A stretch of 64,000 nucleotides of DNA from a candidate division WWE3 bacterium RIFOXYC1_FULL_40_10 (lineage in GTDB: Bacteria > Patescibacteriota > WWE3 > UBA101185 > UBA10185). The notes beneath the pieces are model-generated. The model made no database searches. It saw nothing but the letters and a program-made list of their open reading frames with translations, and had not been told where the DNA came from. A program made the position numbers and the translations under genes. Numbering within the stretch: the stretch's first letter is position 1; the number at the start of each line of letters is the position of its first letter. The DNA lies in NCBI GenBank assembly GCA_001773215.1, contig MEWB01000001.1, positions 151,108 to 215,107 of the forward strand. The letters run 5' to 3'. This document shows positions 1-15,188 of the stretch, piece by piece.

Positions 1-449
1 GCGAAGTTGTCTATATAGTGCCAACCGGCTCCCGTTGCGTCTATTTTAATCGATTTTGTTGCATATTGAGGTAAATATATTGCAGAATCCCGCGTATAGA
101 TGGCACCGGTATCCGGGGAGAGGGAATTCCATCCCTGGGTTTGAATGTTTGATGTGGGGTCAAAAGTTTCGAAAGAAGGATTTGTCGCCAGGTTCAGTGT
201 GTTGCTGAATGTCGTTGTTTGCCATATTCCCGAATCAACTTTGTAATTAACCGTTTTAACCCCGCTTTCAAGATCAGAGGCAGACAACGTGAAGGTAACA
301 GGGGTTACATACCATCCATTATTTCCGTTTGGCGAACCGGGATCTAAAGTAAGGGTAGATACCGGAGGTGTTATATCTGCGGCGTACACTTTAAAAGCAA
401 AAATTGCCGGTAAAAAGGATATAACAGCTAAAAATAATTTCTTGAGCAT
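1..449 (-). CDS. Partial (5' end in window, runs off window start) secreted protein with signal peptide and Ig-like 'TPP...GWY..PVTFTLSASD..SGV..YKVDSG' domain
   Basis: Reverse-strand translation from ATG at 449 gives MLKKLFLAVISFLPAIFAFKVYAADITPPVSTLTLDPGSPNGNNGWYVTPVTFTLSASDLESGVKTVNYKVDSG..., open to window edge. Signal-peptide-like N-terminus. Motif typical of bacterial surface Ig-like domains. Not in ORF track because it lacks an in-window stop. Confidence 0.4.
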   Translation of the reverse strand, partial: MLKKLFLAVISFLPAIFAFKVYAADITPPVSTLTLDPGSPNGNNGWYVTPVTFTLSASDLESGVKTVNYKVDSGIWQTTTFSNTLNLATNPSFETFDPTSNIQTQGWNSLSPDTGAIYTRDSAIYLPQYATKSIKIDATGAGWHYIDNF

Positions 450-502
450 TATGTATATGATAGAGCAAAATGAACAAATTGCTAACAATAAGTTGTTTCT
501 CA

Positions 503-1576
503 TTAAGATTTTTGTTCAATCATGTCAGCAGTGAGAACTGCCATCCTTTTCATCATTTCGTACAATCCGAGGCCTTTTTTTCTGTCTCCAGTCCTTGGTG
601 CAGCGAATCTTCCTCCGGCATAGTGATAATAGTTATAAATAGAGTCTGGATCTAGTAGCTCGTTATTATGTGCGAGTATGGATAAGTGGTGTCTTAATTC
701 TTCTGGGTTAAGTCTGGTAACATTGTATGGGAATATCAGTTCCCCGCCATTATTATTGTACTCAGCAGCTAATTCTTTAAGTAGGCTTTCCTCAGTAGTG
801 GCTTTGCTCATTTCTATGTCAAGCATCCGTATTTCTATCAATTTGTTAAACTCTTCTCTTTGAAGCTGTTTAGCGAGAAAGGCAAGGGATTCCTTTAAAT
901 CTGAATTATTCAATTCCTCTATAAATTCTTTCGTACGTTTGAATACTCTTGCGTCTACAACCAATTTTTGTTCTGGATCTCTGTACCAGAAAGGTCCATG
1001 GCTATTCTCAAATTGATAAGTTCCCTCTGGATTCGTGCCATATATTTTGTTCAGTTCGGCTAAAGCCCCGTTGAGTGTAGCGCCTGTATCCTTAAACTCG
1101 TCAACTATCAGTACTTTCTCGTCGGGGGAGATTTGTAACATCTTTGTCATCATGGATGCAGTTTCGGGGTTTCTGATTTTCCAAGGATCGTCAGTTTTTC
1201 CCAAATCCATAAACCTAACTTTAGGCGGAACGAACCCTTCAGGAAGCAGTTGCCTAGTAGTTAATTGTTCCACCAACTGCCTATATAAGTAAGCTCCAGG
1301 TCTTCCCGATTTATCTAGGAAAATCAGTGTGTCGTAGGGATCCCCATGTTTGAATTCGTTAAGGGTCTTGTTAATAAGGCGGATTGTTCCTGGGAGCATG
1401 TATTCGGACTCGTTGATTTCTTGACTACCCCTGTTAAAGGAGTCATCATGGAATCCCCACCATTTGCCATAGTTTTTCTTCATTTCTCTTTCAATTAGCT
1501 CGATGTTATCGTGAGCCAGATACAATTCCGGTGCATCTCTTTCTGCAGTAATCTGCGATATCGCCTCTGAAATCAT
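503..1576 (-). CDS. Phosphoribosyltransferase (PRTase type I)-domain protein with long C-terminal extension
   Basis: PRTase PRPP-binding signature VLIVDEFKDTGATLNGA (hydrophobic x4, D-E, then TGAT). 357 aa is much longer than canonical about 180-230 aa PRTases. Confidence 0.45.
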   Translation of the reverse strand: MISEAISQITAERDAPELYLAHDNIELIEREMKKNYGKWWGFHDDSFNRGSQEINESEYMLPGTIRLINKTLNEFKHGDPYDTLIFLDKSGRPGAYLYRQLVEQLTTRQLLPEGFVPPKVRFMDLGKTDDPWKIRNPETASMMTKMLQISPDEKVLIVDEFKDTGATLNGALAELNKIYGTNPEGTYQFENSHGPFWYRDPEQKLVVDARVFKRTKEFIEELNNSDLKESLAFLAKQLQREEFNKLIEIRMLDIEMSKATTEESLLKELAAEYNNNGGELIFPYNVTRLNPEELRHHLSILAHNNELLDPDSIYNYYHYAGGRFAAPRTGDRKKGLGLYEMMKRMAVLTADMIEQKS

Positions 1577-1668
1577 AATGGTAGTATACGTAGTTTTATT
1601 GGTGTACTCAAGGTATCACAGAACATGGTAATTATCTTACGGTCAAAGCACTTTTACCGCGTTTATTT

Positions 1669-1950
1669 GTGTATAATTTACACATGCCCAATGAAGGTAA
1701 AGAACATAGCTGGTTGGTAGATCCTGAGCGCGCGAAATTGATTACCCCGGAGAGGGGATATGGTACTAGACTCGCGGCTTATTTAGAAACTACCGAAGCA
1801 GTAATCAAAGAGATTCGAAAAAGAAACGATGCATCTCCCATAAAGTTGCTAATCCAAGTAGTAGATTCCTATAGAAAAGCAACCTATGATATTGTCGATA
1901 CCCCGTTGAGTGGGGAAGACGTTAGAATCCGCAAAATTATAGAAGGGTAA
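1669..1950 (+). CDS. Hypothetical protein
   Basis: 93-aa ORF in intergenic position. No recognisable motif. Confidence 0.2.
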   Translation: MYNLHMPNEGKEHSWLVDPERAKLITPERGYGTRLAAYLETTEAVIKEIRKRNDASPIKLLIQVVDSYRKATYDIVDTPLSGEDVRIRKIIEG

Positions 1951-1966
1951 ATTTAGTCTTTAATAT

Positions 1967-3247
1967 ATGCCAAAACAGGAGGAAGAAATAATTGGAGTAG
2001 AAGAACCTGAGGTCGTAACCACTGTGGCTGAAGAGTATGATGTTGAGGATGACGAGGAACACACTTGGACATTAGTCACTTCAGGGCGTTTATTTGAAGA
2101 AGGAGAAGTTGATACAGTGGATCTAGAGTTCTTACAAAAGCGTAGGTATTCGGTAATAGAGTACAAGGACAATGAAACCGGGGAAACGCTTAAAGTTATT
2201 AGATTCAAGCATACTCAGCAACTACCTGTGGATTTGCCGGCGGGATTTGGTTTCAAAGGTGGTGTGGCTAGGAATGTAGTATTAAGTGAGTTAGGAGATC
2301 GTGTGTTGCCTCCCAGAGATATCGACATTGTCGCTATTTCAGACCAGTCCCCGGATGTATCAAAGTCAAAGGAGCTAGAACAAAAATATATGGCATATGA
2401 TGCCAAGCATGGTTATGGTGTTGAAACTGAGAGTCTGGCTCACTATCTAGAAACAAGAGATTTTGGCATGAATGAAGTTGCAGTTGTAGGTGAAGACGTG
2501 TATATGACATTGGATGCCTTAAGTGATCTTAGGAATAAGATAATCTGGCCTACTAATTTTGAGAAAGAGACTTGGTACGACAAAAAACGTGATGAGAGAG
2601 GTGGTATTGGACCCAAGCTTGTAATGAAGTCGCTCAGACTATATAGCGAAATGTGCTGTATGTATGGCAAAAGCGAAATAAAAGGGGTTGGGGACTGGCA
2701 GTTTGATTCTAGGGAGATACCGTTCTTTCACATAGCACTTCAGCTGGATAAGGCTTTTGAGAATGGTGACACTGTAGCGGTAGCTTTTTTTAGGGCGTTG
2801 CTTTTGAAAGGGATAGTCGTTCAGAGCGAGTTAGCCCCTCCGGGATCCCTAAGGGCAGATTCATCGGTTGAGTTAGCAATAAGGTTGCGTTATCGGCTAG
2901 ATAACTTCACCTTTAGATCTAAACCGGAGTTGACCGGCCCCTTGGATTATTATTATAGTTATTTGGCGCATTTTAAGGATAGTGACAGTAAAATATTGGA
3001 TACAAGTCATTTGAGTGGAGTGGACAGAAGGTACTTAGAAGAAAATATTGGCACTTTTCCGTTGCCCGATTTTAGTGAAGATACTTATTCTTATGCTAGG
3101 GAGTTGGAAGATTGGAAAAGGGGGTCAGAAGTAAGAAGACAGACTTTTGCAGAGCTTCCCGGCCCTATGGAATCGGCTTTTCTTGAGGCTATGAGGGTTA
3201 AAGAAGCTGAAGAAAAAGGTGATAGACCGAAAAGAAATTTTAGTTGA
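1967..3247 (+). CDS. Pol-beta superfamily nucleotidyltransferase, CCA/poly(A)-polymerase head-domain-like, acidic N-terminus
   Basis: GFKGGVARNVVLSELGDRVLPPRDIDIV has the same GGxVR[DN]-(about 16)-DxD pattern as the genuine CCA enzyme in this window (GGSVRDAVI...DFDLEI). No HD or tRNA-binding body recognised. Confidence 0.4.
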   Translation: MPKQEEEIIGVEEPEVVTTVAEEYDVEDDEEHTWTLVTSGRLFEEGEVDTVDLEFLQKRRYSVIEYKDNETGETLKVIRFKHTQQLPVDLPAGFGFKGGVARNVVLSELGDRVLPPRDIDIVAISDQSPDVSKSKELEQKYMAYDAKHGYGVETESLAHYLETRDFGMNEVAVVGEDVYMTLDALSDLRNKIIWPTNFEKETWYDKKRDERGGIGPKLVMKSLRLYSEMCCMYGKSEIKGVGDWQFDSREIPFFHIALQLDKAFENGDTVAVAFFRALLLKGIVVQSELAPPGSLRADSSVELAIRLRYRLDNFTFRSKPELTGPLDYYYSYLAHFKDSDSKILDTSHLSGVDRRYLEENIGTFPLPDFSEDTYSYARELEDWKRGSEVRRQTFAELPGPMESAFLEAMRVKEAEEKGDRPKRNFS

Positions 3248-3710
3248 TATAAGCTATAATCATCCCCATGAGTTTATCAGTTGGAATGCACAGTACGCAA
3301 CCGTAATTTTGAACAACCCTGTTTTTACGCCTTCTTTTGTTTCCTATAAATCTTTATTTTTAATTGATGAACCTGGAATAGTCCGTATTCCTTTTGAAAA
3401 AACTATTGTATTACCTGAGCCTAGAAAGGGTAGGGTAATTGTTGAGCGGGATGTGTTAGGAAGGATTGTGCATTCAAAAGTTCCCCAGATGTCTAGACAA
3501 CTGAAACTGTAACTCATATACTATTAGGTAATGGAGTATAAAATAATCAATAAGAATAATAATAAAAACAGGATTTCACGCTTAAACAAAGAGCTTCAAA
3601 CCTATAAAGAATACTTGCAGGCACTTACAAACCAATCCCATCTTTTGATTTCAAGATTGCAAAATAAAGAAAAACAAAAGGAGACTTTATCTAAGAAAGG
3701 TTAAGAAATT

Positions 3711-5555
3711 ATGCCACAAAATCCTGCTCCAGAAGCTCAAGGACAAGAAAAGTTACCTGAAGACTTAAAGGAAGTTTTAGGTGAGGGTGCTGCTGTACAT
3801 GACGAAGCAACTTCTATGATTCATGCAAACATGGGGGGGGCTATAAAAATGGCAGAGACAACTCTTGGAGAAGATGCAAAACCAGAGTTGGAAGCCATGA
3901 AGGAGCTAGCAGACAGAGCATCCGAAGCAAGAAGTGCATTTGAAACGAGAGCAGAAAGATTAAGCTCGCCTTATGTTGTATCCCCAGAACTACAAAAAAC
4001 ATTAAGAATAGCTACCGTTTTGAAAAAACCATTACTACTTGAGGGTGAACCTGGTACTGGAAAGACATCTTTAGCTTACGCATTAGCAGGAGAGGAAGAC
4101 CTTCCTTTAATACATTGTCGAGGTAAGAGTACATTAACTGCTCAATCTGTAATGTACGAAATAGATTATGTTGCCAGATTGAATGATGCGACCCTCACTC
4201 AAGCTATTCCAGAAAATATGCGAGCAGAAGCGGGAAAATGGGAAAGTTATTTGAAAGCAGGAAATGACCCCAACAGCACCGAATTTCAGGGATTTATGCG
4301 TGGTCTCGATAATGCTGCAAGACTCCTAAATTTAGGCAGGGTGTCGGATGTACGCAACTACATTAGTTACGGCGAGCTTGGCGAAGCAATAATTAGAGGT
4401 TCAAGAGGTGAAAAAGTAATTTTGCTTTTTGATGAGGTTGATAAAGCTAAAAGAGAGTTTCCTAACGATTTGCTTGATGAGTTGGAACACATGACTATGC
4501 GTATTCGGGAGACAGGGGAGGAAGTTAGTTCGCCCAGGGAAAACATTGTTGTTGTAATAACCTCTAACCATGAAAGAGATTTGCCAGAGCCATTTTTAAG
4601 AAGATGTGTCTACAGCTATTTGGAATTTCCAAAACCAGACCAACTAACGGAAATAGTCAAAGCTCATATACCAGATGTGGAAGAAAAGCTTTTACGAAGT
4701 GCTGTTACAAGATTTTATGAAATAAGGGAAACGCAAGGCTTGCAAAAACCTCCTTCCACTTCAGAAATGTTGGATTGGGTAAAAGTATTGATGGAATTTG
4801 GTATTGAAGAAGTTGGTGGTGCAACGCCACTTCCAGAAGCAGTATTAAAAATAAAAGAAGACATGGACTTAGTTAGAAAACGGGAAAAAGAAACACGAAC
4901 AGGTGTATACGAAGCTGATGATTATGATGAGTTTTCAGTTTTAGAGGCGTACGAAATGGAAACGGCAGCGATTGAAGCCTTACGAGGAAGCAGGGTAGTT
5001 AACTTCAAGGGTGAGGAATACTACAGAGACAGACCTTCCTCGGAACTACTGATGGCACTTGCTAACGGGGGAGTAGCATTTAAGTATTCTGAAAGAGATA
5101 GAGAACCTTTTGAGATACTTGTGGATGGCGTGAAAATGGTTGCTCCTATGACTTTTGTATTCCCTCATAGACTTAGTGCTGAAGAACTTGCTTTATCTAC
5201 AGACGAAATACTTCAGAGGCAACAGGATAAACCAGAAGGTGAAAGAATGGGTAGAAGGCAGATAATCCAGGAAAAAAAGGCTAGCAGACTCCTAGCAGCT
5301 TTGGAAGAAGGCAAATTAGTTGCAGGAGAGTTTGTAGTAACCGAGCAGCCAGTTGCATTTACGGGTGTCGAAACATCTAATCAGTACTTTGTTAAAGGTA
5401 AAGATGCTTCTGGTAGAACTATATTTAGAACATCGGATGGCAAGTATATTTATGAAAAATCTACTAGTGAGGTGTCCAGCGAACCATCTGACGAAGATTT
5501 ATTAGGTTCAGCAACACTCAAGAAGCTTTCCTTTGACGATGAAGACGAAAAGTGA
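3711..5555 (+). CDS. MoxR/CoxD-like AAA+ ATPase
   Basis: Walker A LLLEGEPGTGKTSLAYALA, Walker B VILLFDEVDKA, sensor region ITSNH. Immediately followed by a VWA protein, which is the canonical MoxR-VWA pairing. Confidence 0.7.
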   Translation: MPQNPAPEAQGQEKLPEDLKEVLGEGAAVHDEATSMIHANMGGAIKMAETTLGEDAKPELEAMKELADRASEARSAFETRAERLSSPYVVSPELQKTLRIATVLKKPLLLEGEPGTGKTSLAYALAGEEDLPLIHCRGKSTLTAQSVMYEIDYVARLNDATLTQAIPENMRAEAGKWESYLKAGNDPNSTEFQGFMRGLDNAARLLNLGRVSDVRNYISYGELGEAIIRGSRGEKVILLFDEVDKAKREFPNDLLDELEHMTMRIRETGEEVSSPRENIVVVITSNHERDLPEPFLRRCVYSYLEFPKPDQLTEIVKAHIPDVEEKLLRSAVTRFYEIRETQGLQKPPSTSEMLDWVKVLMEFGIEEVGGATPLPEAVLKIKEDMDLVRKREKETRTGVYEADDYDEFSVLEAYEMETAAIEALRGSRVVNFKGEEYYRDRPSSELLMALANGGVAFKYSERDREPFEILVDGVKMVAPMTFVFPHRLSAEELALSTDEILQRQQDKPEGERMGRRQIIQEKKASRLLAALEEGKLVAGEFVVTEQPVAFTGVETSNQYFVKGKDASGRTIFRTSDGKYIYEKSTSEVSSEPSDEDLLGSATLKKLSFDDEDEK

Positions 5556-5576
5556 AAAGTTTCCTAAGGGCTTCAA

Positions 5577-7382
5577 ATGAGTGAAAAATTTACACCAGAA
5601 CCAGAAGTTCCTCAAGAAGAACCCTTAGCAAGCAAGGGTAAACCTGAAGTTTCAGTAAAGCTACCAGAATCCCCAGACATTAAAATCGATATTGAAAAAA
5701 AAGAAATAATAATCCTTTCCGAAGGTACTGAAACTGGTGAAAAAAGGCATCCTTTTCAAGAGTTTATGTATCACCTAAGGGGTGAAGGTATAAGAGTTTC
5801 CACAGGAGAGTGGCTAGACCTACAAACGCTGCTTGCGGCTGGAGAAGTACAGAGTTTGGACGAGCTTTATGTAGTAGCAAGAGCAGTTTTAGTTAAGGAT
5901 GCAGTTAATTATCCAAAATATGATGTAGCTTTTGGAAAACTTTTTTATGGTATAGAACCTCCAAGCGAGGAGGAAGAAGAAAATGAGGATAGCTATGATG
6001 AGCAAAATGATTACGATGACCCGCAAGACGGTACTGAATCTGAGGATGCTTTAAGGGAAAAGGCAGAGGTTGAAGAAAAAGAGAAAAAGGAAAAATCTGA
6101 ACCAAGCGAACCTGAAACAGACAAAGAAGCGGAGGAGGATGATGCTGAGGATAAGGAAGCAGAAAAGAAGGAGAAGAAAAAAGAGGAAGAAAAAAAGAAA
6201 CCAATACAAAAAGAAAAAGAGGATATTGATGAAGTCGAGGAAGCGACTTCTAAAACGACAGAAGATAAGCATGGTGGCGATGAGGCGACTAAGGATATTG
6301 AAGATTCACCTAACCCTGCTGATGAGGGCAAGAACAAGGAAAACAAAGGTGCTGAAAAAGGCGAGGATGGTTCGGAAGGTAAAGGCGAAGGTGAGGGTGG
6401 TGAAAAGAAGACGAAGAAAGGTACTGTTGGCGAAGGGGGTAAAAATAAAAGTGGTATGGGGAAAGAAGGTGAGGGCGAAGAAGAGGAGGAAACAGACGAA
6501 GCTGATGAAACAGATGAAAAAAAAGAAAGCAAAAAAGGAACTGGTAAATCTGGAGGAGGCGGGGGTAAACACAAAAAGAAATCAAAGGAAAGTGTTATGC
6601 GTGCTAGCGGTAAAGGAGGTTACGCATCTGCGAGAGAACGAGTTCAACAGAGGGAATACGAGGAGCTTAGAGATGATAGGACTCTTGGCTATGAGCAGTT
6701 CGGTAGAGCTTTATCTAAATTACGCACAATTGTACAGGAAACTACTTCTGCCAAAACTAGGACATTAGATGCCAGAGCTACAGTAAGAGCTATTGCCGAG
6801 CATGCAGGGACTCCAGAGCTGCTGTGGAAGGAAGAAGTGGAGGAGAAGCCTAGTGTAGTGCTTTTATTTGATGTTGGTGGGAGCACAGACGAATACAGAC
6901 CCATTCTTGAAAAACTATTTTCAGCAGCAAAAGACCATTTAGAAGGTTTAGAGGTCTATTATTTCCACAATGCTATCTATGGTGAGGTATGGCCGCAGAA
7001 AGATGGCAATTGGGGTAAGCACTTTGTGCCAGTATCCGATATTTTGAAAAAAGATTCTTCCACAAAGTTTATTATTATTGGCGATGCTTGGATGGCTGAC
7101 AGCGATGCAATGAATGGTGGTCTTCACGACTCTTATTTGGACTTAGACCCAGATGCAAAAAAGACTGAGCCTTGTTATAGGTGGACAGGACTCGAAAACT
7201 TTCAAGCAATAACCGAAGCTTTTCCAGCAACTGTGTGGGTAAATCCTATTTTAGAAAAACACCGAGACGATGCAGACGATTCTGGAACAATAGCGGATGT
7301 AGAAAGAGTTATTACTATGTATGACCTGAGTTTAAGAGGTATAGAAGCGGCAGTTAAGAAACTTATGGAAGAGGAACAGTAG
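5577..7382 (+). CDS. VWA-domain (CoxE-like) protein with about 230-aa E/K/D/G-rich low-complexity linker
   Basis: C-terminal LLFDVGGSTDEY...FIIIGDAWMADSD resembles a VWA/MIDAS-like fold partner of MoxR ATPases. Central region 5930-6600 is poly-acidic/basic (EEEEENED..., KKEKKKEEEKKK). Confidence 0.55.
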   Translation: MSEKFTPEPEVPQEEPLASKGKPEVSVKLPESPDIKIDIEKKEIIILSEGTETGEKRHPFQEFMYHLRGEGIRVSTGEWLDLQTLLAAGEVQSLDELYVVARAVLVKDAVNYPKYDVAFGKLFYGIEPPSEEEEENEDSYDEQNDYDDPQDGTESEDALREKAEVEEKEKKEKSEPSEPETDKEAEEDDAEDKEAEKKEKKKEEEKKKPIQKEKEDIDEVEEATSKTTEDKHGGDEATKDIEDSPNPADEGKNKENKGAEKGEDGSEGKGEGEGGEKKTKKGTVGEGGKNKSGMGKEGEGEEEEETDEADETDEKKESKKGTGKSGGGGGKHKKKSKESVMRASGKGGYASARERVQQREYEELRDDRTLGYEQFGRALSKLRTIVQETTSAKTRTLDARATVRAIAEHAGTPELLWKEEVEEKPSVVLLFDVGGSTDEYRPILEKLFSAAKDHLEGLEVYYFHNAIYGEVWPQKDGNWGKHFVPVSDILKKDSSTKFIIIGDAWMADSDAMNGGLHDSYLDLDPDAKKTEPCYRWTGLENFQAITEAFPATVWVNPILEKHRDDADDSGTIADVERVITMYDLSLRGIEAAVKKLMEEEQ

Positions 7383-7455
7383 AAACCCAAGTTTGTCGTT
7401 ATAACCACTATAAGATATAATACCCCTTACAAAACTGCATTTCCTATCAAAAATC

Positions 7456-7869
7456 ATGGAGGAAAGAATGGAAGACACAATTGGTGTTTTATGCCCATTC
7501 ACAGGCAAGGGAAACCTTCCTGTGCCGACTAGCCCTGTGTGGGCGGGCAGCGTGCCAGGTGAGAACATCTGGTACTTTAGTCATGACGAAGTGGAATCGG
7601 ATGGTCTGGCTGATGCTGTTGGACACCTCATGGGTGAAGAGACGGATATTCGCAAGACTATGCGTTGCATTGAAGCCCTTCAAAATAGTGGCAACTTGCA
7701 ACGAGTTGGAGAGTGGTGGTTTTTGCGTTTGCCGCAGCTTCCACGCCTTGAACTTCCAAGCGTTGCCGATATTGTGCTTGCTGTAGCTGACGGTACAGAC
7801 ATTGTGAGTGAAACACGCTCCAAGTTTGAAACCTACGCTCAGCAGCTCCAAACGGCATTGACGCAATAA
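7456..7869 (+). CDS. Hypothetical protein encoded in locally GC-rich (about 50%) segment
   Basis: 137-aa ORF. Surrounding 7.45-7.9 kb has visibly higher GC than flanks and open frames on both strands. Coding status uncertain. Confidence 0.3.
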   Translation: MEERMEDTIGVLCPFTGKGNLPVPTSPVWAGSVPGENIWYFSHDEVESDGLADAVGHLMGEETDIRKTMRCIEALQNSGNLQRVGEWWFLRLPQLPRLELPSVADIVLAVADGTDIVSETRSKFETYAQQLQTALTQ

Positions 7870-7982
7870 GGACTAAATCCAAAGGCCAAGAACACATCCA
7901 GTCCGCTTGAAGAAGAGCCTGTTAAGGGTAAAAAAACCTTTCGCAGGCTCTTTCTGTTTTATGTAGGTGTTAAAATATATGT

Positions 7983-8465
7983 ATGCGAAGGCTTACTGAA
8001 AAGCAACAAAAATTTATTGAAAAGTTAAATGCTGGTATTACACCTGTAGTTGCCGCCGAAGACTTGTACCGTTGTAAAAATCGTAATGTAGCCAGAGTCA
8101 TAGCGTCAAAAAATGTTAATCATCCTGTTATCTTTGAAAAAGTACGAGATGCTTTAGATTATCCTGGTTCAAAAGCTAGGGTAGAGCATATTGTAAAGGT
8201 AATTGAAGATGGTTTAACTGCTAACAAGACCATCATTACGAGGGTAGGGGACTTAGTGGAAGTACCAGACCACAAAACACGCTTGTATGCAGCACAGCTA
8301 GCTTTAAGAGTTCGTGGCGAACTTAAAGATATTATTGTTGATAACACATCTCATGATATTCATGTAAGTTTTAAGCTAATAAAAGCCAGAAGTCCTGAGG
8401 AAGTAGCCAGAGCAATGGGTAATACGAATACCAGGGCAGCAATACTGGAAGGTGAAACTAGTTAA
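7983..8465 (+). CDS. Putative phage terminase small subunit-like / HTH DNA-binding protein
   Basis: N-terminus LTEKQQKFIEKLNAGITPVVAAEDLY...ARVIASKNVNHPVI parallels the TerS N-terminal pattern (LSPKQE(R/K)F..EY...NATQAA..AGYS...). Weak, by eye. Confidence 0.3.
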   Translation: MRRLTEKQQKFIEKLNAGITPVVAAEDLYRCKNRNVARVIASKNVNHPVIFEKVRDALDYPGSKARVEHIVKVIEDGLTANKTIITRVGDLVEVPDHKTRLYAAQLALRVRGELKDIIVDNTSHDIHVSFKLIKARSPEEVARAMGNTNTRAAILEGETS

Positions 8466-8784
8466 TAAACGGTTAATGCTTACTTCCAGGACATCCCTTA
8501 AAAGGGTTACCTTGCCTGTGTGTTTTATTTTTCTTTCCCAGAACCATGTCGTTATTCGATGCTTATACGACATCTTTGTATTGAGGCAAATGCTGTAATA
8601 TCAAGCAAAAACAGTTGTACTCATGCGTCTTCTGTGTAACACACCTCTGATTTAATCTCATAGTGTGTGTTTTTGCTTTACGCTTTTGGGCTTGAGGGGT
8701 GTCACGCCGCCGCCGAGCGTTGATGAGCGTATGAGAAGAAAAAATCCGAAACCATAGGTATAATGTCTTCACATAAACATAAAT

Positions 8785-9429
8785 ATGAGTATAAACACAG
8801 ATAAATATAAAATAGTACCGCATGCAGCAGTCTTACTGGTGCAAAAAATACTGGAGAAGACAGAACCTCTTGCTGATACCAATGTGATATATCTTGAGCA
8901 TGTTTCCAGACAGCAGCAGAATACCTCTAAAACCTTTGTTTACGACAGTAGAAGCACAATAGAGTACTTGTACGGTGTTGGCATACTCCATGAGATTCGC
9001 CGAATAAAAAATGATGGTAGAACAGTAGAAGATTGGAAATACAAAGTCCATTTTTATAGAAGTAAGGCAATCGATTTTCTTCAAAATCTACCACTAGACG
9101 AAAACATTTACGAAATAACCTACGATGACCACATGCGTGAGATAAAAATAAACGGGAAACTTTTGACCAAGACATACTTTGGCAGCGATACGGATATGCT
9201 GTTTGAGCATGTTTACACTCATCCTGGCATACTATTGGGAAAAACTAGTATAGAGGTGGCAATCGACCAGAAGATGCGTACTTTAGCTGCAATTGTAAAA
9301 GACTTAAAATTTGTGGGTGTTTATAGAGAAGTATTTTTCCCTGTGGTTACTAAAACCCAGATTAAGTTCGTCAATCCTATTACCAGGCGTTATGCCTTAG
9401 AGAACCATCTTCCATCATTACCCTTATAA
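8785..9429 (+). CDS. Hypothetical protein (element-borne)
   Basis: 214-aa ORF with no recognised motif. Lies within the putative integrative element. Confidence 0.35.
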   Translation: MSINTDKYKIVPHAAVLLVQKILEKTEPLADTNVIYLEHVSRQQQNTSKTFVYDSRSTIEYLYGVGILHEIRRIKNDGRTVEDWKYKVHFYRSKAIDFLQNLPLDENIYEITYDDHMREIKINGKLLTKTYFGSDTDMLFEHVYTHPGILLGKTSIEVAIDQKMRTLAAIVKDLKFVGVYREVFFPVVTKTQIKFVNPITRRYALENHLPSLPL

Positions 9430-9503
9430 ATCAGTTTATGTGGTTTTATGCGAGTTTGTGCGTATTGGCTCACTAACCCCTTTCTATATGTGATTCTGGT
9501 TAC

Positions 9504-9749
9504 ATGGATAAGGCAGAATCAACATTATATAAGACTTCGACATTACCCCTAGCGGTATGCCTGTCCTTAATTTATCCCTTGAAATCAATTGAAAAAGGTA
9601 GCGACAGAAATCTGGTTTTTGTATTTGAAGAAACCAAGGACTTGCTTGATTCCATTGAACTTTATTGGAACAAACAGCTCCAAGTTGAACCGCAGTCATT
9701 TTTCTCCAGAATGCGGGAACTGAAAGCGAGGCTTTATGAACAGGTGTAA
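9504..9749 (+). CDS. Hypothetical small protein
   Basis: 81-aa ORF upstream of primase. Confidence 0.2.
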   Translation: MDKAESTLYKTSTLPLAVCLSLIYPLKSIEKGSDRNLVFVFEETKDLLDSIELYWNKQLQVEPQSFFSRMRELKARLYEQV

Positions 9750-9877
9750 AGTTCCGCAGGTTTCATATAAGGCGGTGGCACTTGCTCGTATTGAGGAAAA
9801 ACTGGACAAAGTTTATCAAATTATTTTCCAGCAAATGGAAAGCATGGGAATGACCCAGGAAGGCAATAAGAATAAAA

Positions 9878-12070
9878 ATGAATCAGGTGGAAACAATAAC
9901 AATTAAAGAATATCTTGATACGAAAGGCATACCATACAAAGAAAAGGGTAAAGAGCTTATAACAGCATGTGTTTTCAATAGCTGCGACAGCGACAGTCAT
10001 GCAGGTGAGGAACACTTATATTTTGATGCAGACACTTCTCAATATAAATGTTTCAAATGCGGTGAGACTGGAAATATCTTCACGCTTTGTGAGTTTTTAG
10101 GCGATGACAAGAAAACAGTAATTAAACAAAGTACTTCTGTGGGAACGGCAAGAGGCGTCAAAATTACTCTTGAGCAAATAGAAAGCTATCATAAAGCCCT
10201 ACCAGACCGCATAAAAAAATATCTTGAGGAAAAGAGAGGTATATCCACAGACTGGCAAAATACTTTTATGCTAGGGTGGGGTTCTTTTTATGGGAAAAAC
10301 TGGATAGTTATACCTTACAAGGATGCAGTAGGTAACTTTTCCTACCTAAAGCTTAGACGAGACCCTGAAACTGGTGAGGGCGAAAAGTATATGCGATTCC
10401 CAAGCGGGGCTGAATCAGCCATATACGGCATCGAAGTGTTGAGGGAAGAACAAGACTTACTTCTGATAACGGAGGGGGAGTTTGACGCTATGGTTGCAAC
10501 CATAAACGGAATCTCTGCAATATCTTTTTCTACAGGTGCGGGTAGTTACAAAAATGAAATCCGAAAACATGCGGAGCAGCTAAAGAAAATCAAGAAAATT
10601 TATGTGTGTCTGGATGCCGATATTGCGGGTATCGCCGCATCTACTGAAGTTATGAAGGAGCTTTTAGCGTTTGCACCTGATGCGGAACTTTACAGAGTAG
10701 ATTTATCGGAAAAGGTTAGGGGTGTTGGTAAAGATATTACGGATTATTTTGCTAGCTGCGGAGGTACTCCTGATGAACTTATTTATAAACTGGCAACTCG
10801 TTTTACGAAAGAAGATGTTGGGAAGGTAAACAGAATAATAACTGTACCCAAACCACAAAAAGATGTGTCGATAGAAGGTTGGAGAAATATAATTATTTCA
10901 ACTTTCCCCACCTTGCTTTTTCCTGCGGAGCTGTCTTTGTCTGTTTTAGGGCAGCTACTTATAAACGATATTAGTAATCCTTTCGGTTTGGTTTTGGTAG
11001 GTATGCCTTCTTCTGGAAAAACCATTACTCTCAACTTCTTTTCTGATGTTGACGAGCTTGTGTTTTGCTCGGACAAGTTTAGTGCAGCAGCTTTTGTTTC
11101 CAACGCTTCAAATGTTAAGGCAGAAAAGTTAGCCGAAATAGACCTTTTGCCAAAAATTCGCTACAAACTTTTTGAAGTGCGGGACTTAGCGACTCTATTT
11201 AGTAAGCGTGACGACGACTTGAATGAAGCTCTCGGTTTACTTACAAGAGTATTTGACGGTGAAGGCATTTTTACAGATTCAGGCACTCACGGACACAGGG
11301 GTTACAAAGGTGAATATCTGTTTATGTTCTTAGGTGCAACAACGCCAGTTTCACCAAGAGTATGGAAAATGATGGGCAATTTGGGTAGCCGTCTTTTCTT
11401 TTACAACATTGATAGTCCCGCAAAGACGGAATCAGAACTCATGGAGCAGATTACAACAAGCTCTTATAAGCAGAAAGAGAAGAAATGTCGTGAGGTAACA
11501 AAAGATTTTGTTTATAGTTTATGGAACGAGCATCCGAAAGGCATTACTTGGAAAAAAGAATCCGACTCGCCAAGAGCAAAAAGCCTGGTAGCAAAATCCG
11601 CCATATTTTTGGCAAGACTTAGGGGCGTGATAAACATTTGGAAGGACAGAAACGAATATTGGAGTTCGGACGAATATAACTTCACCATGCCTGTGGTTGA
11701 GCAACCAGACCGCTTAAATCAACTTTTTTACAATCTTTCAAGAGGGCATGCTGTTATTTGTGGACGAGATTACATTGATGACACCGATTTGAAGTTTGTA
11801 ATTGAGTTGGCAATACAAAGTTCTGAATATGTAAGGTCTTCAATCATGCGTGGACTTCTGAAGAATGGAGGTAGTCTCAAAACCAGCCAGGTTGAAAAGT
11901 TATTAAATTGCTCAAAGCCTACAGCATTAAAAGAAATGGAGGTGTTAAAAATACTAGGCTTATGTGACTACCGTGAAGAACTAACACTAGGATACCCTGG
12001 CAATAGTGAGAAACTTCTTGTGCTAAAAGAAGACTTTATGTGGTTACTAGAGGAACTAAAAAGAGAATAA
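9878..12070 (+). CDS. DNA primase (zf-CHC2 + TOPRIM) fused to C-terminal P-loop NTPase domain; mobile-element replication initiator
   Basis: N-terminal zinc finger CVFNSCDSDSHAGEEHLYF...YKCFKCGETGN. TOPRIM LLLITEGEFDAMVA ... CLDADIAGIAAS. Downstream Walker A GMPSSGKT. Architecture matches P4-alpha/SaPI Pri-Rep-type proteins. Confidence 0.7.
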   Translation: MNQVETITIKEYLDTKGIPYKEKGKELITACVFNSCDSDSHAGEEHLYFDADTSQYKCFKCGETGNIFTLCEFLGDDKKTVIKQSTSVGTARGVKITLEQIESYHKALPDRIKKYLEEKRGISTDWQNTFMLGWGSFYGKNWIVIPYKDAVGNFSYLKLRRDPETGEGEKYMRFPSGAESAIYGIEVLREEQDLLLITEGEFDAMVATINGISAISFSTGAGSYKNEIRKHAEQLKKIKKIYVCLDADIAGIAASTEVMKELLAFAPDAELYRVDLSEKVRGVGKDITDYFASCGGTPDELIYKLATRFTKEDVGKVNRIITVPKPQKDVSIEGWRNIIISTFPTLLFPAELSLSVLGQLLINDISNPFGLVLVGMPSSGKTITLNFFSDVDELVFCSDKFSAAAFVSNASNVKAEKLAEIDLLPKIRYKLFEVRDLATLFSKRDDDLNEALGLLTRVFDGEGIFTDSGTHGHRGYKGEYLFMFLGATTPVSPRVWKMMGNLGSRLFFYNIDSPAKTESELMEQITTSSYKQKEKKCREVTKDFVYSLWNEHPKGITWKKESDSPRAKSLVAKSAIFLARLRGVINIWKDRNEYWSSDEYNFTMPVVEQPDRLNQLFYNLSRGHAVICGRDYIDDTDLKFVIELAIQSSEYVRSSIMRGLLKNGGSLKTSQVEKLLNCSKPTALKEMEVLKILGLCDYREELTLGYPGNSEKLLVLKEDFMWLLEELKRE

Positions 12071-12154
12071 TTAAGTTATAATTACACATAGTGTCATGTA
12101 TCCTTTATCGATAAAGATAATCTGACGCTGTATCTGCCCAGAAAGAAGTATTTT

Positions 12155-13750
12155 ATGAGATTAGCTTTTTATGGCAGAGTAAGCACTCAAAGACAGGAAA
12201 AAGAAGAAACGATAGAAAACCAACTTTTGGTAGTTAAAGAAAAATTTGAGAAGGAAGGTCATGTATTTGTTAAGGATTATATCGATGAAAATTGGTCGGG
12301 GATGGTTTTGGAGAGACCTGATTTAGACCAATTAAGGCTTGATGCTGCTTCTGACTTATGGGAGGGCATTGCAATGTACGATACCGATAGATTAAGCCGC
12401 AAGTATATGCACCTGTGTATCCTACAGGAAGAGTTTGAGAAGGCAGGGAAGCAGCTATTGTTTGTTACGATTAAGACACCCGAAAATGATGAAGACCGTC
12501 TGATGTTTGGAATAAAAGGCTTGTTTAGTGAATATGAACGCTACAAAATTTCTGAAAGATTTAGATTAGGGAAGTTACGAAAGGCTCGTTCAGGGCAATT
12601 GATAATTTCACATGCACCTTTTGGGTATCGCCTCTTTAAAAAAACCGACAAAGAACATACTAGGATTGAAATAGAGCCTTACGAAGCAGAAGTAATAAAA
12701 ATGATTTTTACATGGCTTGGCGAAGAGGGTTGTAGCATCAGAGAAGTTATAAGAAGGCTTACAGATAAAGGTATACAGCCAAGAAAGAGCATGCGTAAAG
12801 TTTGGGCAACTTCCACAATAAATAACTTTATACACAACGAAACATATATGGGGACGGCATATTTTGGAAAATCTAAAGCTATAGAACCTAAAAACCCATT
12901 AAAGATTGAAAAGTATAAGCGGATAAAGAAGACTAGCCGTGTTCTTAGACCTAAAGAGGATTGGATACTAATAAAAGTTCCAACTATAATTACAGAAGAG
13001 CTATACAACAAAGTAAGAGCTAGGATGGAAGTTAACTCAAAATTTGCACCTAAGAATAAAAAACATGAGTACCTGTTAACTAGCTTGGTTGCATGTCCAT
13101 GTGGCTACAACAGAGTGGGGGAGCAAGGAAGGTATTACAGATGCAGCCAGCGTATTTATACATTTCCAGTAAAACAGTCCTGTACAGAAGGTGGTGTTGA
13201 TTCCAGCATGCTAGATTCTATGGTATGGCAGGAAATTTCTCAGCTCTTGTTGCAAAAAGACCTGATACTCGACTATTACAATAGGTGGACTGACTCGTTA
13301 AATGCTAAACACAATACTTATGAATCTCAAGTTAAGCCCTTAGAAAGAGGCTTAGACAGCTTAGAACGAGAATCTGCAAGGTATGTGAAAGCATTTGGTG
13401 CTGGATTGCTCGACTTTCAACAGTTTCAGGAGCTAAAAGTAGAGTTGGACAATAAAAGGTTATTGTTACAGGCTCAAATAAGTGTTAAAAAGTCTAGTGC
13501 AGACGAAGCGAAACGGACTCACTTAACAGAGGGAATGGTTGACACTTATTGCCAATTTGCATCAGCAGCGTTAAACGGTTTGTCATTTCAACAGAAACAA
13601 GAGATACTTAGAACGGTGGTTGAGAAGGTTACAGCCACACAAAAGGAAGCAATTATTTATGGTTACATACCCGTTAAAAAACTTAATACAAAGGAGGATA
13701 TCCTAAATGTCGAGCAGCGTCCTATCCATAGGAATCATTGGATTGCCTAA
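12155..13750 (+). CDS. Large serine recombinase (serine integrase)
   Basis: Catalytic N-terminus MRLAFYGRVSTQRQ (Y-x-R-V-S-T-x-x-Q). Recombinase domain, Cys-rich zinc ribbon CPCGYNRVGEQGRYYRCSQR and coiled-coil C-terminus. 531 aa. Confidence 0.8.
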   Translation: MRLAFYGRVSTQRQEKEETIENQLLVVKEKFEKEGHVFVKDYIDENWSGMVLERPDLDQLRLDAASDLWEGIAMYDTDRLSRKYMHLCILQEEFEKAGKQLLFVTIKTPENDEDRLMFGIKGLFSEYERYKISERFRLGKLRKARSGQLIISHAPFGYRLFKKTDKEHTRIEIEPYEAEVIKMIFTWLGEEGCSIREVIRRLTDKGIQPRKSMRKVWATSTINNFIHNETYMGTAYFGKSKAIEPKNPLKIEKYKRIKKTSRVLRPKEDWILIKVPTIITEELYNKVRARMEVNSKFAPKNKKHEYLLTSLVACPCGYNRVGEQGRYYRCSQRIYTFPVKQSCTEGGVDSSMLDSMVWQEISQLLLQKDLILDYYNRWTDSLNAKHNTYESQVKPLERGLDSLERESARYVKAFGAGLLDFQQFQELKVELDNKRLLLQAQISVKKSSADEAKRTHLTEGMVDTYCQFASAALNGLSFQQKQEILRTVVEKVTATQKEAIIYGYIPVKKLNTKEDILNVEQRPIHRNHWIA

Positions 13751-14819
13751 TGTAGGCAAATCTACTTTATTTAATGCGTTGTTAAAGAGACAGGCTGCTT
13801 TGGTTGCAAACTATCCCTTTGCGACAATTGAGCCAAATATAGGAATGGTGGACGTCCCTGACAGTAGATTACATAAAATGGCGGAGTATGTGAGAAATGA
13901 TTATGGTCGAAAGTTGGGGGATAGGGAAGTGCCCGAGAAAATTATTCCCGCTGTTGTGAAATTTTACGATATCGCAGGTTTAGTTAAGGGAGCCAGCCAG
14001 GGTGAAGGACTAGGTAACGAATTTCTTGGTCACATCCGAGAGGTAGACGCCCTAATTCATGTTGTAAGAGACTTTTCAGACGAAAATATTATAAGATCCG
14101 GATCTGTTAGCCCTAAAGAAGATGTATCAATCATAGAAACCGAGCTTATTTTGTCGGATTTGGCAGTTATAGAAAAAATAATTAATACTTTGTCTGCAGG
14201 GAATAAGTCTATTAAGAACCCTAAAGTTACTCAAAAAATTGACATCCTTAATACAGTGAAAACCAATTTCGAAAAAGGTGTGTCTGCCAGATCTATAGGT
14301 TTATCAGAGAAAGAAATAGAAGTAATCTTTGACGTTCCTTTATTAACTCTGAAGCCGGAGCTGTATTTATACAATGTAGATGAGGATGAAGTAGCGGAAA
14401 AATCTAAAGCAGACTCTGATAGTTCGATTTTTCTCTGTGCAAAGATTGAATCAGAGTTAGCGGGATTTTCCGAGGAGGAAAAAATTCAATACCTCACACA
14501 TTTAGGGTTGCAAGAGAGCGGATTAGATAGGGTAATCAGAAAAGGCTATAAACTGCTATCCTTGCAGAGCTTCTTAACGATGGGACCAAAGGAAGTTAGG
14601 GCATGGACGATAAAAAAAGGCACTAACGCCAGAAAGGCATCTGCAAAGATCCATACCGACTTTGAAAAAGGCTTCATAGCGGCGGATATAATAAATTTTG
14701 ATGAATTGGATAAGATTCAAAGCCTTAGAAAAGCAAGAGACTTGGGTTTAGTTAGACTTGAAGGGAAGGACTATTTAATGCAAGAGGGCGATGTAGTTGA
14801 GTTTAGAATAAATGTATAG
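13707..14819 (+). CDS. ychF: Ribosome-binding ATPase YchF (Obg-family GTPase with TGS domain)
   Basis: IGIIGLPNVGKSTLFNAL P-loop at N-terminus. C-terminal TGS-like segment. About 365 aa length typical. Confidence 0.85.
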   Translation: MSSSVLSIGIIGLPNVGKSTLFNALLKRQAALVANYPFATIEPNIGMVDVPDSRLHKMAEYVRNDYGRKLGDREVPEKIIPAVVKFYDIAGLVKGASQGEGLGNEFLGHIREVDALIHVVRDFSDENIIRSGSVSPKEDVSIIETELILSDLAVIEKIINTLSAGNKSIKNPKVTQKIDILNTVKTNFEKGVSARSIGLSEKEIEVIFDVPLLTLKPELYLYNVDEDEVAEKSKADSDSSIFLCAKIESELAGFSEEEKIQYLTHLGLQESGLDRVIRKGYKLLSLQSFLTMGPKEVRAWTIKKGTNARKASAKIHTDFEKGFIAADIINFDELDKIQSLRKARDLGLVRLEGKDYLMQEGDVVEFRINV

Positions 14820-14900
14820 TATATTCCATTTTGCTTAGAAATTAATCGTGGACAAGCACTGCAGTTTGTATATAATGCAGACCGTACGAGGATTGAGCTT

Positions 14901-15188
14901 ATGAAAAAATATGAACTAATGTTAATAGCGAATATCGACCTTGGGGAGCAAGGTGCAAAGGACTTTTTTGTCTCAGTAAAGGATATGATCCAAAAAATGG
15001 AGGGTGCTATAGTTAGAGAGGATTACTGGGGGAAAAGGAAATTCGCGTACGAAATAAAAGGGAAATCCGAAGGTTTCTATAGTGTGTTGGAGGTTACCTT
15101 AGAAAGCGCCAGTTTGGCCGATTTGAAAACTAAACTTAATAGAACCTCCGGAGTAGTTAGATATTTAATTACAGCTTTGGCAAAATAA
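14901..15188 (+). CDS. rpsF: 30S ribosomal protein S6
   Basis: MKKYELMLIANIDLGEQ...REDYWGKRKFAYEIKGKSEGFY matches S6 pattern (HYEI.F...DWGRR.LAY). Conserved rpsF-ssb-rpsR order. Confidence 0.85.
   Translation: MKKYELMLIANIDLGEQGAKDFFVSVKDMIQKMEGAIVREDYWGKRKFAYEIKGKSEGFYSVLEVTLESASLADLKTKLNRTSGVVRYLITALAK

Follow-up and report, generated by a model that had tools for sequence, protein, structure and literature searches.

A putative serine-integrase element in the first codons of ychF of a WWE3 bacterium, with an attachment site inside the integrase coding sequence

Mobile elements that integrate by means of a large serine recombinase (LSR) commonly insert into protein-coding genes, such as comK, groEL1 and spsM, and the host gene is usually split or inactivated. 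To our knowledge, the attachment site of the element (attP) in phages and integrative and conjugative elements (ICEs) of this type lies beside the integrase gene, int, and not inside its coding sequence. Attachment (att) sites within the integrase gene, forming a compact int/att module, characterize the SSV-type "suicidal" tyrosine integrases of archaeal viruses and plasmids, which have been reported to be exclusive to archaea (PMC8371274). In the mycobacteriophages BPs, Brujita and Charlie and in prophages of M. abscessus, attP resides in a coding sequence, and the viral and prophage forms of the protein have different C-termini (PMC8092301). The gene ychF is itself known to border a pneumococcal prophage, which lies between dnaN and ychF (the PPH005 site) and whose integration lowers ychF expression while excision restores it (PMC6375853, PMC8637289). 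The locus described here is found in a 64,000-nt stretch of DNA (hereafter the window) from candidate division WWE3 bacterium RIFOXYC1_FULL_40_10 (Patescibacteria; MEWB01000001.1, positions 151,108-215,107, forward strand), where the 3′ end of an LSR gene overlaps the start of ychF, a GTPase (YchF/OLA1) gene of the essential type. This overlap (13707-13750) is interpreted as the right attachment site (attR) of a 10.4-kb element, encoding an LSR and a primase, that entered ychF within its first codons; support for the anatomy is good, and we regard this interpretation as very probably correct. The exact YchF and integrase proteins of the window have also been deposited under candidate division WWE3 (Patescibacteria) genomes.

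The features that make up the right junction are as follows.

12155-13750, + strand: large serine recombinase in its prophage form, 531 aa (Pfam and alignment)
13692-13697, + strand: AGGAGG, putative Shine-Dalgarno sequence of the chimeric ychF (sequence reading)
13707-14819, + strand: chimeric ychF, 370 aa (Pfam, junction comparison and reconstruction)
13707-13756, + strand: attR, consisting of element arm, GG and host arm
13707-13730, + strand: element (P) arm of attR, 24 nt, ATGTCGAGCAGCGTCCTATCCATA, scoring 22.9-23.1 bits with a position weight matrix (PWM)
13731-13732, + strand: crossover dinucleotide GG of attR, the first two bases of the Gly codon in S-I-G-I-I-G
13733-13756, + strand: host (B′) arm of attR, encoding the YchF P-loop stretch I-I-G-L-P-N-V-G and conserved in 37 of 37 junctions; its 24-nt extent is nominal

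The recombinase is an LSR by its domains and by the layout of its sites, and as such would be expected to recombine attP with attB in one direction only, a directionality factor being required for excision. It matches the Pfam Resolvase domain (PF00239, E = 4.7e-25, residues 4-148), the Recombinase domain (PF07508, E = 1.6e-18, residues 176-292) and the integrase family PHROG 95 (2e-87), and resembles the phiC31, Bxb1, A118/LI, TP901-1 and SPbeta SprA enzymes in its resolvase catalytic and recombinase domains and in a putative zinc ribbon with coiled coil, for which the match to Zn_ribbon_recom (PF13408) is weak (21.4 bits, under the cut-off of 25.3). In an alignment of 40 homologues, the cysteines C314, C316, C330 and C343 are invariant, as are the YGRVST motif with R8 and S10 and other residues of the catalytic domain. 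Among solved LSR structures, SPbeta YokA is a weak match (E = 7e-9) confined to the N-terminal half, and the sequence search of the PDB did not reach the C-terminal region of the integrase.

The open reading frames (ORFs) of the integrase and ychF share 44 nt in different frames, just as a first-pass annotation of this DNA had stated, and its proposal that an att junction lies within 13690-13760, at which the element supplies a replacement end for ychF, is borne out by the native ychF remnant found at the other end of the element and by the fact that both parental sites can be reconstructed (see below). On the integrase side of the exchange, residues 1-526 are native, and the final five together with the stop codon (..HR-NHWIA) are ychF read out of frame. 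On the ychF side, codons 1-8 are derived from the element, and host sequence begins at the GG of codon 9. The resulting YchF N-terminus (MSSSVLSIGIIGLPNVGKS), which had been called normal, is actually three residues longer than the canonical arrangement of M plus four residues before G-I/V-I/V-G-LPNVGKS, because its first eight codons come from the element. The product otherwise displays the expected domains (MMR_HSR1, PF01926, at 4.5e-22; YchF-GTPase_C, PF06071, at 8e-33), and its GLPNVGKS P-loop (G-x4-GKS), downstream of the crossover, is intact. The element also provides the AGGAGG, which sits 9 nt before the ATG of the chimeric gene and within integrase codons that constitute a linker insertion.

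The P arm of attR is thus read in two frames, as ..NVEQRPIHR in the integrase and as MSSSVLSI in YchF, and has the layout ATGTCGAG-N16-GG that is also seen in the symmetric attP of locus L085. A 38-nt block at attR is identical to that of locus L082, though the two integrases share only 64% identity, a degree of conservation that would be explained by the use of two frames in combination with the predicted binding of the P arm by the integrase. A hairpin with a 7-bp stem (TTGCCTAATGTAGGCAA, 13743-13759), flagged by a terminator scan in the P-loop-coding host arm, is probably incidental.

At the opposite end of the element, the following features are assigned.

3255-3282, + strand: host (B) arm of attL, with the native promoter-like box and start of ychF (sequence reading)
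3283-3284, + strand: crossover dinucleotide GG of attL (in-register sharing with attR)
3285-3308, + strand: element (P′) arm of attL, AATGCACAGTACGCAACCGTAATT (top half-site PWM score)
3285-3512, + strand: displaced 3′ end of the integrase gene, 75 codons plus stop (in-frame reconstruction and match to locus L097)
3285-13730, + strand: integrated element, 10,448 bp from GG to GG (ends from attL and attR)

The B arm of attL contains a −10-like TATAAT (3255-3260), a 7-nt spacer, and the native ATG (3268) followed by the remaining codons of MSLSV. The surrounding sequence reads gcTATAATcatcccc ATG AGT TTA TCA GTT GG aatgcacagtacgcaaccgtaatt, such that the remnant MSLSVG leads directly into the P′ arm, and the native start now opens a remnant ORF of only 12 codons (MSLSVGMHSTQP). 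For the scoring of candidate sites, a half-site PWM was built from 15 sites aligned on GG, 11 of them natural and four reconstructed, the window's entry among the latter being a site at 7483 that was later rejected; a second PWM used natural attP sites only. Among all 719 GG sites in window positions 1-13000, the one at 3283 scores best with the first matrix (6.8 bits, with the runner-up at 0.8) and remains best with the second (4.8 bits). The assignment of attL to 3283 is based on this top score together with the TATAAT-7 nt-ATG arrangement bearing the MSLSVG remnant and the open 75-codon frame that restores the integrase tail.

The first-pass annotation had placed the other end of the element in 7380-8000 and had expected it to be an imperfect copy of 13700-13760. 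No repeat was found in that interval; attL lies 4.1 kb further to the left, and shares with attR only the GG. A search for direct and inverted repeats across 6500-15000 likewise yielded nothing relevant, including no direct repeat flanking the element, and none is expected, because the enzyme is a serine integrase. Serine integrases duplicate only the 2-bp crossover. An inverted copy of the element's own P arm, sought in each of the loci compared, was recovered only in L132.

Exchange of the two junction halves regenerates both parental sequences. When the left part of attL is placed before the right part of attR, the YchF N-terminus obtained, MSLSVGIIGLPNVGKSTLFN, has the canonical length. 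The same start, with M plus four residues before G-I/V-I/V-G, occurs in the element-free Patescibacteria locus L002, and YchF proteins of E. coli and B. subtilis have the same N-terminal length. The reconstructed attachment site of the host (attB) gives MSLSVGIIGLPNVGKS, with a predicted native ychF 5′ end of ...TATAATCATCCCCATGAGTTTATCAGTTGGAATCATTGGATTGCC. The reciprocal combination, of the left side of attR with the right side of attL, yields a 601-aa integrase (12155-13732 plus 3285-3512) that is joined in frame after R526. Its 75 restored residues end in ..IPFEKTIVLPEPRKGRVIVERDVLGRIVHSKVPQMSRQLKL, and 33 aa of the restored tail align at 55% identity (E = 3e-9) with the very C-terminal end of the full-length L097 integrase. 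The predicted junction sequences are ..CCTATCCATAGGAATGCACAGTACGC.. for attP and ..GTTTATCAGTTGGAATCATTGGATTG.. for attB; centered on the crossover, these are ..GCAGCGTCCTATCCATA-GG-AATGCACAGTACGCAACCG.. and ..CATCCCCATGAGTTTATCAGTT-GG-AATCATTGGATTGCCTAATG.., respectively.

Four other loci have a mapped attL, namely L105 (element of 10,715 bp), L125 (4,407 bp), L128 (6,518 bp) and L132 (10,762 bp). Each presents TAnAAT, 6-9 nt, and an ATG that opens MSLSIG or MAKLSIG, and in each the reconstruction gives a canonical YchF N-terminus and an in-frame integrase tail with a PF motif. In all five of the mapped attL/attR pairs, GG is the sole dinucleotide held in common in register, since the sites differ at position −1 in the window and at +1 in L105, and GG is also the center of the two-fold symmetry in the attP consensus. 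The crossover is therefore placed at this GG, at 3283-84 and 13731-32, as the predicted point of cleavage. An AT at positions −3 and −2 was considered as the crossover and excluded, as the window attL has GT there and AT is palindromic.

Two side observations concern these attL regions. The TAnAAT box resides 6-9 nt before the native ychF start, with no Shine-Dalgarno sequence, in all five hosts (window 3255-3270; L105:826-843; L125:1790-1805; L128:3072-3086; L132:770-787), which suggests that native ychF mRNA is leaderless in these Patescibacteria; in contrast, the start supplied by the window's element has AGGAGG. In L132, a second P′-like half-site (GG catattaaagtt TTAACACAA ttgcc, at L132:2715) is present 1.9 kb inside the element with no ychF remnant to its left, and may be the trace of a tandem or nested integration.

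Integrases that retain a native tail offer a view of the proposed free state. None of these is adjacent to ychF, and every native-tail gene contains ychF-like sequence in the codons directly before the tail. The integrase is full-length, with the site inside the ORF, in L175 (9,547 bp, with a 121-nt terminal direct repeat) and L097 (7,419 bp, with a 105-nt repeat), for which a circular or unintegrated state is the simplest reading. Natural attP sites within full-length ORFs are found in L175, L097, L085, L087 and others. They span about 50 bp and comprise two imperfect inverted half-sites of about 24 nt around the non-palindromic GG, which is the layout expected of an LSR, but are located inside the integrase ORF. 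Both arms share the half-site consensus nATnGTnAGnnCACAACTCGACAT (15 sites), and the L085 site is perfectly two-fold symmetric, ATGTCGAG-N16-GG-N16-CTCGACAT, with inner CGATA-GG-TATCG. In an AlphaFold2 model of P0094, a free-form integrase (mean pLDDT 80.6), long helices (370-508) lie between strand elements, and the attP-encoded residues 527-550 fall in a low-confidence linker that follows a β-hairpin (509-526) and precedes a terminal strand modelled with confidence (551-559, IPFYFAIKL).

The arrangement seen in the window recurs across a large clade. The three closest homologues with usable contigs (64, 46 and 45% identity) are all encoded directly upstream of ychF on the same strand. When these and the window were combined with loci obtained by scanning JGI metagenome contigs with the integrase alignment, followed by tblastn with YchF, 37 loci (35 distinct sequences) were assembled in which the integrase shows about 34-64% identity and ychF lies at the integrase end; no integrase of 33% identity or less adjoins ychF. 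In all 37, the integrase reading frame runs without interruption across the junction and terminates inside ychF, 20-356 nt (median 44) past the crossover, and because of this recurrence the overlap is not attributable to chance. The ychF start is three codons longer than canonical in 26 of them. Downstream of a conserved "GYLPI", most of the 40 aligned integrases end in the YchF P-loop region (IGIVGLPNVGKS) in the wrong frame. A strict version of this out-of-frame tail is present in 94 of the 120 best database homologues and a relaxed version in about 10 more, and the other 14 have a distinct, mutually conserved tail, ..PF.x.x.LPPPLxRGxDYGF. The arrangement is common to about a hundred related Patescibacteria elements. 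Those that could be mapped are 4.4-10.8 kb in length and differ in content. All-against-all blastn for near-identical elements in different hosts returned only L098 and L139 (87-89% identity), whose hosts are themselves related, and no sharp discontinuity is readable from the pair; a scan of a viral contig collection with the integrase gave no match. In L084 (11551-14227), ychF is apparently broken near its 3′ end, as a 321-aa YchF ORF is followed by a 443-aa ORF without a Pfam match and a 33-aa YchF-GTPase_C fragment, which may represent a second, different insertion into the same gene.

A pathway can be proposed from these comparisons. In the free element, attP would lie within the integrase ORF, where it would encode the linker before the last conserved β-strand, with the ychF frame beginning ATG TCG... 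The attB site would span the promoter, start codon and P-loop-coding region of ychF, and crossover would take place at the GG of the first Gly codon. Integration would then have two effects. The promoter, start codon and first five codons of ychF would be left at attL (3255-3284), and the element would in turn provide the gene with a ribosome-binding site, an ATG and eight codons, from which it is presumably expressed in the lysogen. At the same time, the last 75 codons of the integrase gene would be left at attL (3285-3512), such that the protein loses its terminal strand and tail and ends after five out-of-frame ychF codons. Transcription of ychF in the lysogen could start at the old promoter and read through the element, which has the same orientation, or could start within int, and promoter scans gave hits at chance level only. 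The 601-aa free and 531-aa prophage forms of the integrase may differ in function.

In several respects the window element behaves as would be expected of a phage or ICE with an LSR, with short att sites of imperfect inverted half-sites, a non-palindromic central dinucleotide, no flanking direct repeat, a protein-coding target gene, and an integrase at one prophage end adjoining att. It departs from these in that the P arm doubles as a replacement host-gene start and the C-terminus of the integrase would change upon integration. With SSV-type integrases it shares an att site inside the integrase gene, which is partitioned by integration; however, those are tyrosine recombinases that target tRNA genes and whose own gene is disrupted, whereas the enzyme here is a serine recombinase in a bacterium, targets ychF, and would lose only the last 75 of 601 codons, with the catalytic, recombinase, and putative zinc-ribbon/coiled-coil parts intact. 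The window element is therefore an analog rather than a member of that group. The mycobacteriophage systems of integration-dependent immunity involve a repressor gene, a tyrosine integrase and the removal of a degradation tag, and the only principle they have in common with this locus, where the serine integrase gene itself is affected, is that free and prophage C-termini differ. The pneumococcal prophage at the PPH005 site is similarly situated directly upstream of ychF with int adjoining the gene, but there attB is a 26-bp intergenic site flanked by a DUF951 gene and ychF, integration leaves the coding sequence of ychF unaltered, and the host belongs to another phylum. Finally, some tyrosine-integrase elements bring with them a new 3′ end for a tRNA or protein gene and likewise restore a displaced gene end, but do so with a long duplicated segment of identity, whereas here only 2 bp are shared and the replacement N-terminus (MSSSVLSI) is distinct from the native MSLSV. 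No description of the present arrangement, or of an attP within the gene of a serine integrase, was found in open-access full texts.

Several observations weigh against an insertion of this kind or against its present mobility. No empty site or excised form was encountered; every contig read that encodes the exact YchF, the VWA protein of the element or the 426-aa protein from the gene upstream of attL (1967-3247) holds the element, and neither the rebuilt native YchF nor the 601-aa integrase has an exact counterpart in the protein collection, these look-ups reaching exact protein sequences only and at most 23 contigs each. In GTDB genomes, the nearest ychF shares only 54% identity and provides no close empty site. 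The P′ arm of the window, at 4.8-6.8 bits, scores under every natural attP arm, the natural arms having been scored by a model built from themselves. No candidate directionality factor was seen in the window, the HTH_17 ORF that lies upstream of int in L083, L084, L090 and L175 being absent. The circularity of L097 and L175 is read from terminal repeats alone, and recombination itself is predicted from sequence comparison. Part of this would fit an element that was once mobile but of which this copy has become fixed ("grounded") and unable to excise, leaving the junction as a fossil. The missing empty site and circular form in any sample, the lack of an HTH_17-type factor adjoining int, the moderate consensus match of the P′ arm and a cargo AAA-ATPase that is split into two ORFs in L178 all point in that direction; set against them are an intact integrase ORF with all invariant residues, a displaced 75-codon tail that is still open and conserved, a strong P arm at 23 bits, and the limited reach of the look-ups. 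Fixation of this copy is thus a possibility that we take seriously but consider unlikely.

Two further explanations were considered. The recombinase could be a domesticated chromosomal gene, for instance a regulator, in an operon with ychF, and the overlap ordinary gene packing. The recurrence of the int-ychF arrangement in 37 loci, its presence in every contig read of the window species, and the orientation of all element genes with ychF are in keeping with this, and the first-pass annotation had held that conservation of the recombinase upstream of ychF in relatives would speak against an attachment site. Such conservation is indeed what is found, but it does not have that meaning, because the elements vary in size and content, native ychF remnants persist at attL and free forms have terminal repeats. 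Specifically, what lies between the ychF remnant and the integrase is entirely different from locus to locus in size (4.4-10.8 kb) and content, native ychF starts are preserved at the far element end in five of them, relatives with terminal repeats carry an uninterrupted integrase, and the integrase tails are out-of-frame ychF rather than conserved protein, all of which makes domestication very improbable. Alternatively, the crossover might lie upstream of the ychF start, with ychF wholly of host origin and only the integrase tail entering it, or, in a variant, the left end might be near 7483 and the element 6.2 kb long. The latter position was initially accepted as attL, as a start-like ATG GAA GAC ACA ATT GG occurs at 7468 (MEDTIG, continuing as MEDTIGVL), just past the VWA gene. 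It was dropped because it scores −6.8 bits and ranks 22nd of the 719 GG sites, because the rebuilt integrase tail lacks the PF motif, and because no register restores both a PF tail in frame and a functional YchF; the sequence "LCPFTGKGNLPVP" nearby, taken as the displaced integrase tail, was rejected together with it. By contrast, 3283 combines the PWM score, the MSLSVG remnant with its −10 box, and a restored tail. An upstream crossover is also at odds with the remnants at five attL sites, which hold the ATG plus 5-6 codons and so place the crossover inside ychF, and with the overlong ychF start in 26 of 37 loci, and it is the least credible of these alternatives, with hardly any weight in our estimation.

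With insertion at ychF retained as the preferred interpretation, the genes between the att sites are as follows.

3711-5555, + strand: AAA_5 (MoxR-like) ATPase (Pfam)
5577-7382, + strand: VWA_CoxE protein (Pfam)
7456-7869, + strand: orf137, GC-rich (ORF list)
7983-8465, + strand: orf160, weak small-terminase match (PHROG 51, 4e-4)
8785-9429, + strand: orf214 (ORF list)
9504-9749, + strand: DUF5659 protein (Pfam)
9736-9906, + strand: orf56 (ORF list)
9878-12070, + strand: DnaG-type (Toprim) primase, 730 aa (Pfam Toprim_2; PHROG 47 DNA primase, 2e-22)

All ORFs assigned to the element (3285-13750) are on the + strand, in the same direction as ychF. The AAA_5 ATPase and VWA_CoxE genes had been taken for host flank, but reside inside the att boundaries and always co-occur with the element in the contigs read, and are thus element cargo. 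The VWA_CoxE protein, partnered by the MoxR-like ATPase, shows an extreme abundance of E, K, D and G in a central region of about 250 aa, and the ATPase has only weak PADLOC matches (IetA, 2e-7). In one sample (L178) the 614-aa ATPase is called as two ORFs, of 184 and 419 aa, which suggests a frameshift variant of this gene in the population. Homologues of the primase occur in L082, L084, L127, L135 and others, and those of the DUF5659 protein in six other ychF-targeting elements. Phage satellites such as phage-inducible chromosomal islands (PICIs) combine an integrase, a primase or replicase and a gene that redirects packaging (a small terminase), and lack capsid genes. In the window element, the integrase and primase are clear and the small-terminase match of orf160 is weak (4e-4); no structural genes were detected among the element proteins. 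The orf137 region (7456-7869) is a 400-nt stretch of 48.6% GC, against about 39% in its surroundings, and four of its six frames contain long ORFs (137, 125, 101 and 79 aa). No match to Pfam, PHROG, PADLOC or Rfam and no homologue in the other elements was obtained for it, and it may represent a genuine gene or a structured RNA; Rfam gave no match in 7300-8100 and only one tRNA in the whole window. Cargo is highly variable among ychF-targeting elements. A relative, L083 (6797-8275), encodes a large terminase and also a Prim-Pol, and the free form L175 (4124-7174) encodes a 1016-aa protein with Peptidase_C14 (caspase-like) and DEAD helicase domains.

For sequence databases, these results imply that most integrase entries of this clade are chimeric at the C-terminus and that many YchF entries are chimeric or mis-started at the N-terminus. 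They also define, purely from the sequences of five independent integrations and several free forms, att sites and a predicted crossover for a large, uncharacterized clade of Patescibacteria serine integrases, in a group for which almost no genetic tools are available. The target includes the DNA of the YchF P-loop, among the most conserved of protein motifs, which would explain how a single integrase clade could colonize very divergent hosts and makes the clade of interest for the mining of serine integrases in genome engineering. The reciprocal exchange of a host N-terminus and an integrase C-terminus suggests integration-dependent control of integrase activity. Conceivably, attP inside int acts as a state switch, with the 601-aa form competent for integration and the 531-aa form altered in stability, DNA binding or directionality, although this proposal is tentative and we would not favor it on present grounds. 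Should it be true, the element could be locked in, or could depend for excision on a helper or a superinfecting copy, and expression of the host ychF would depend on signals encoded by the element. Such a switch would constitute a bacterial serine-recombinase counterpart of both the archaeal "suicidal" integrases and integration-dependent immunity, distributed across Patescibacteria.

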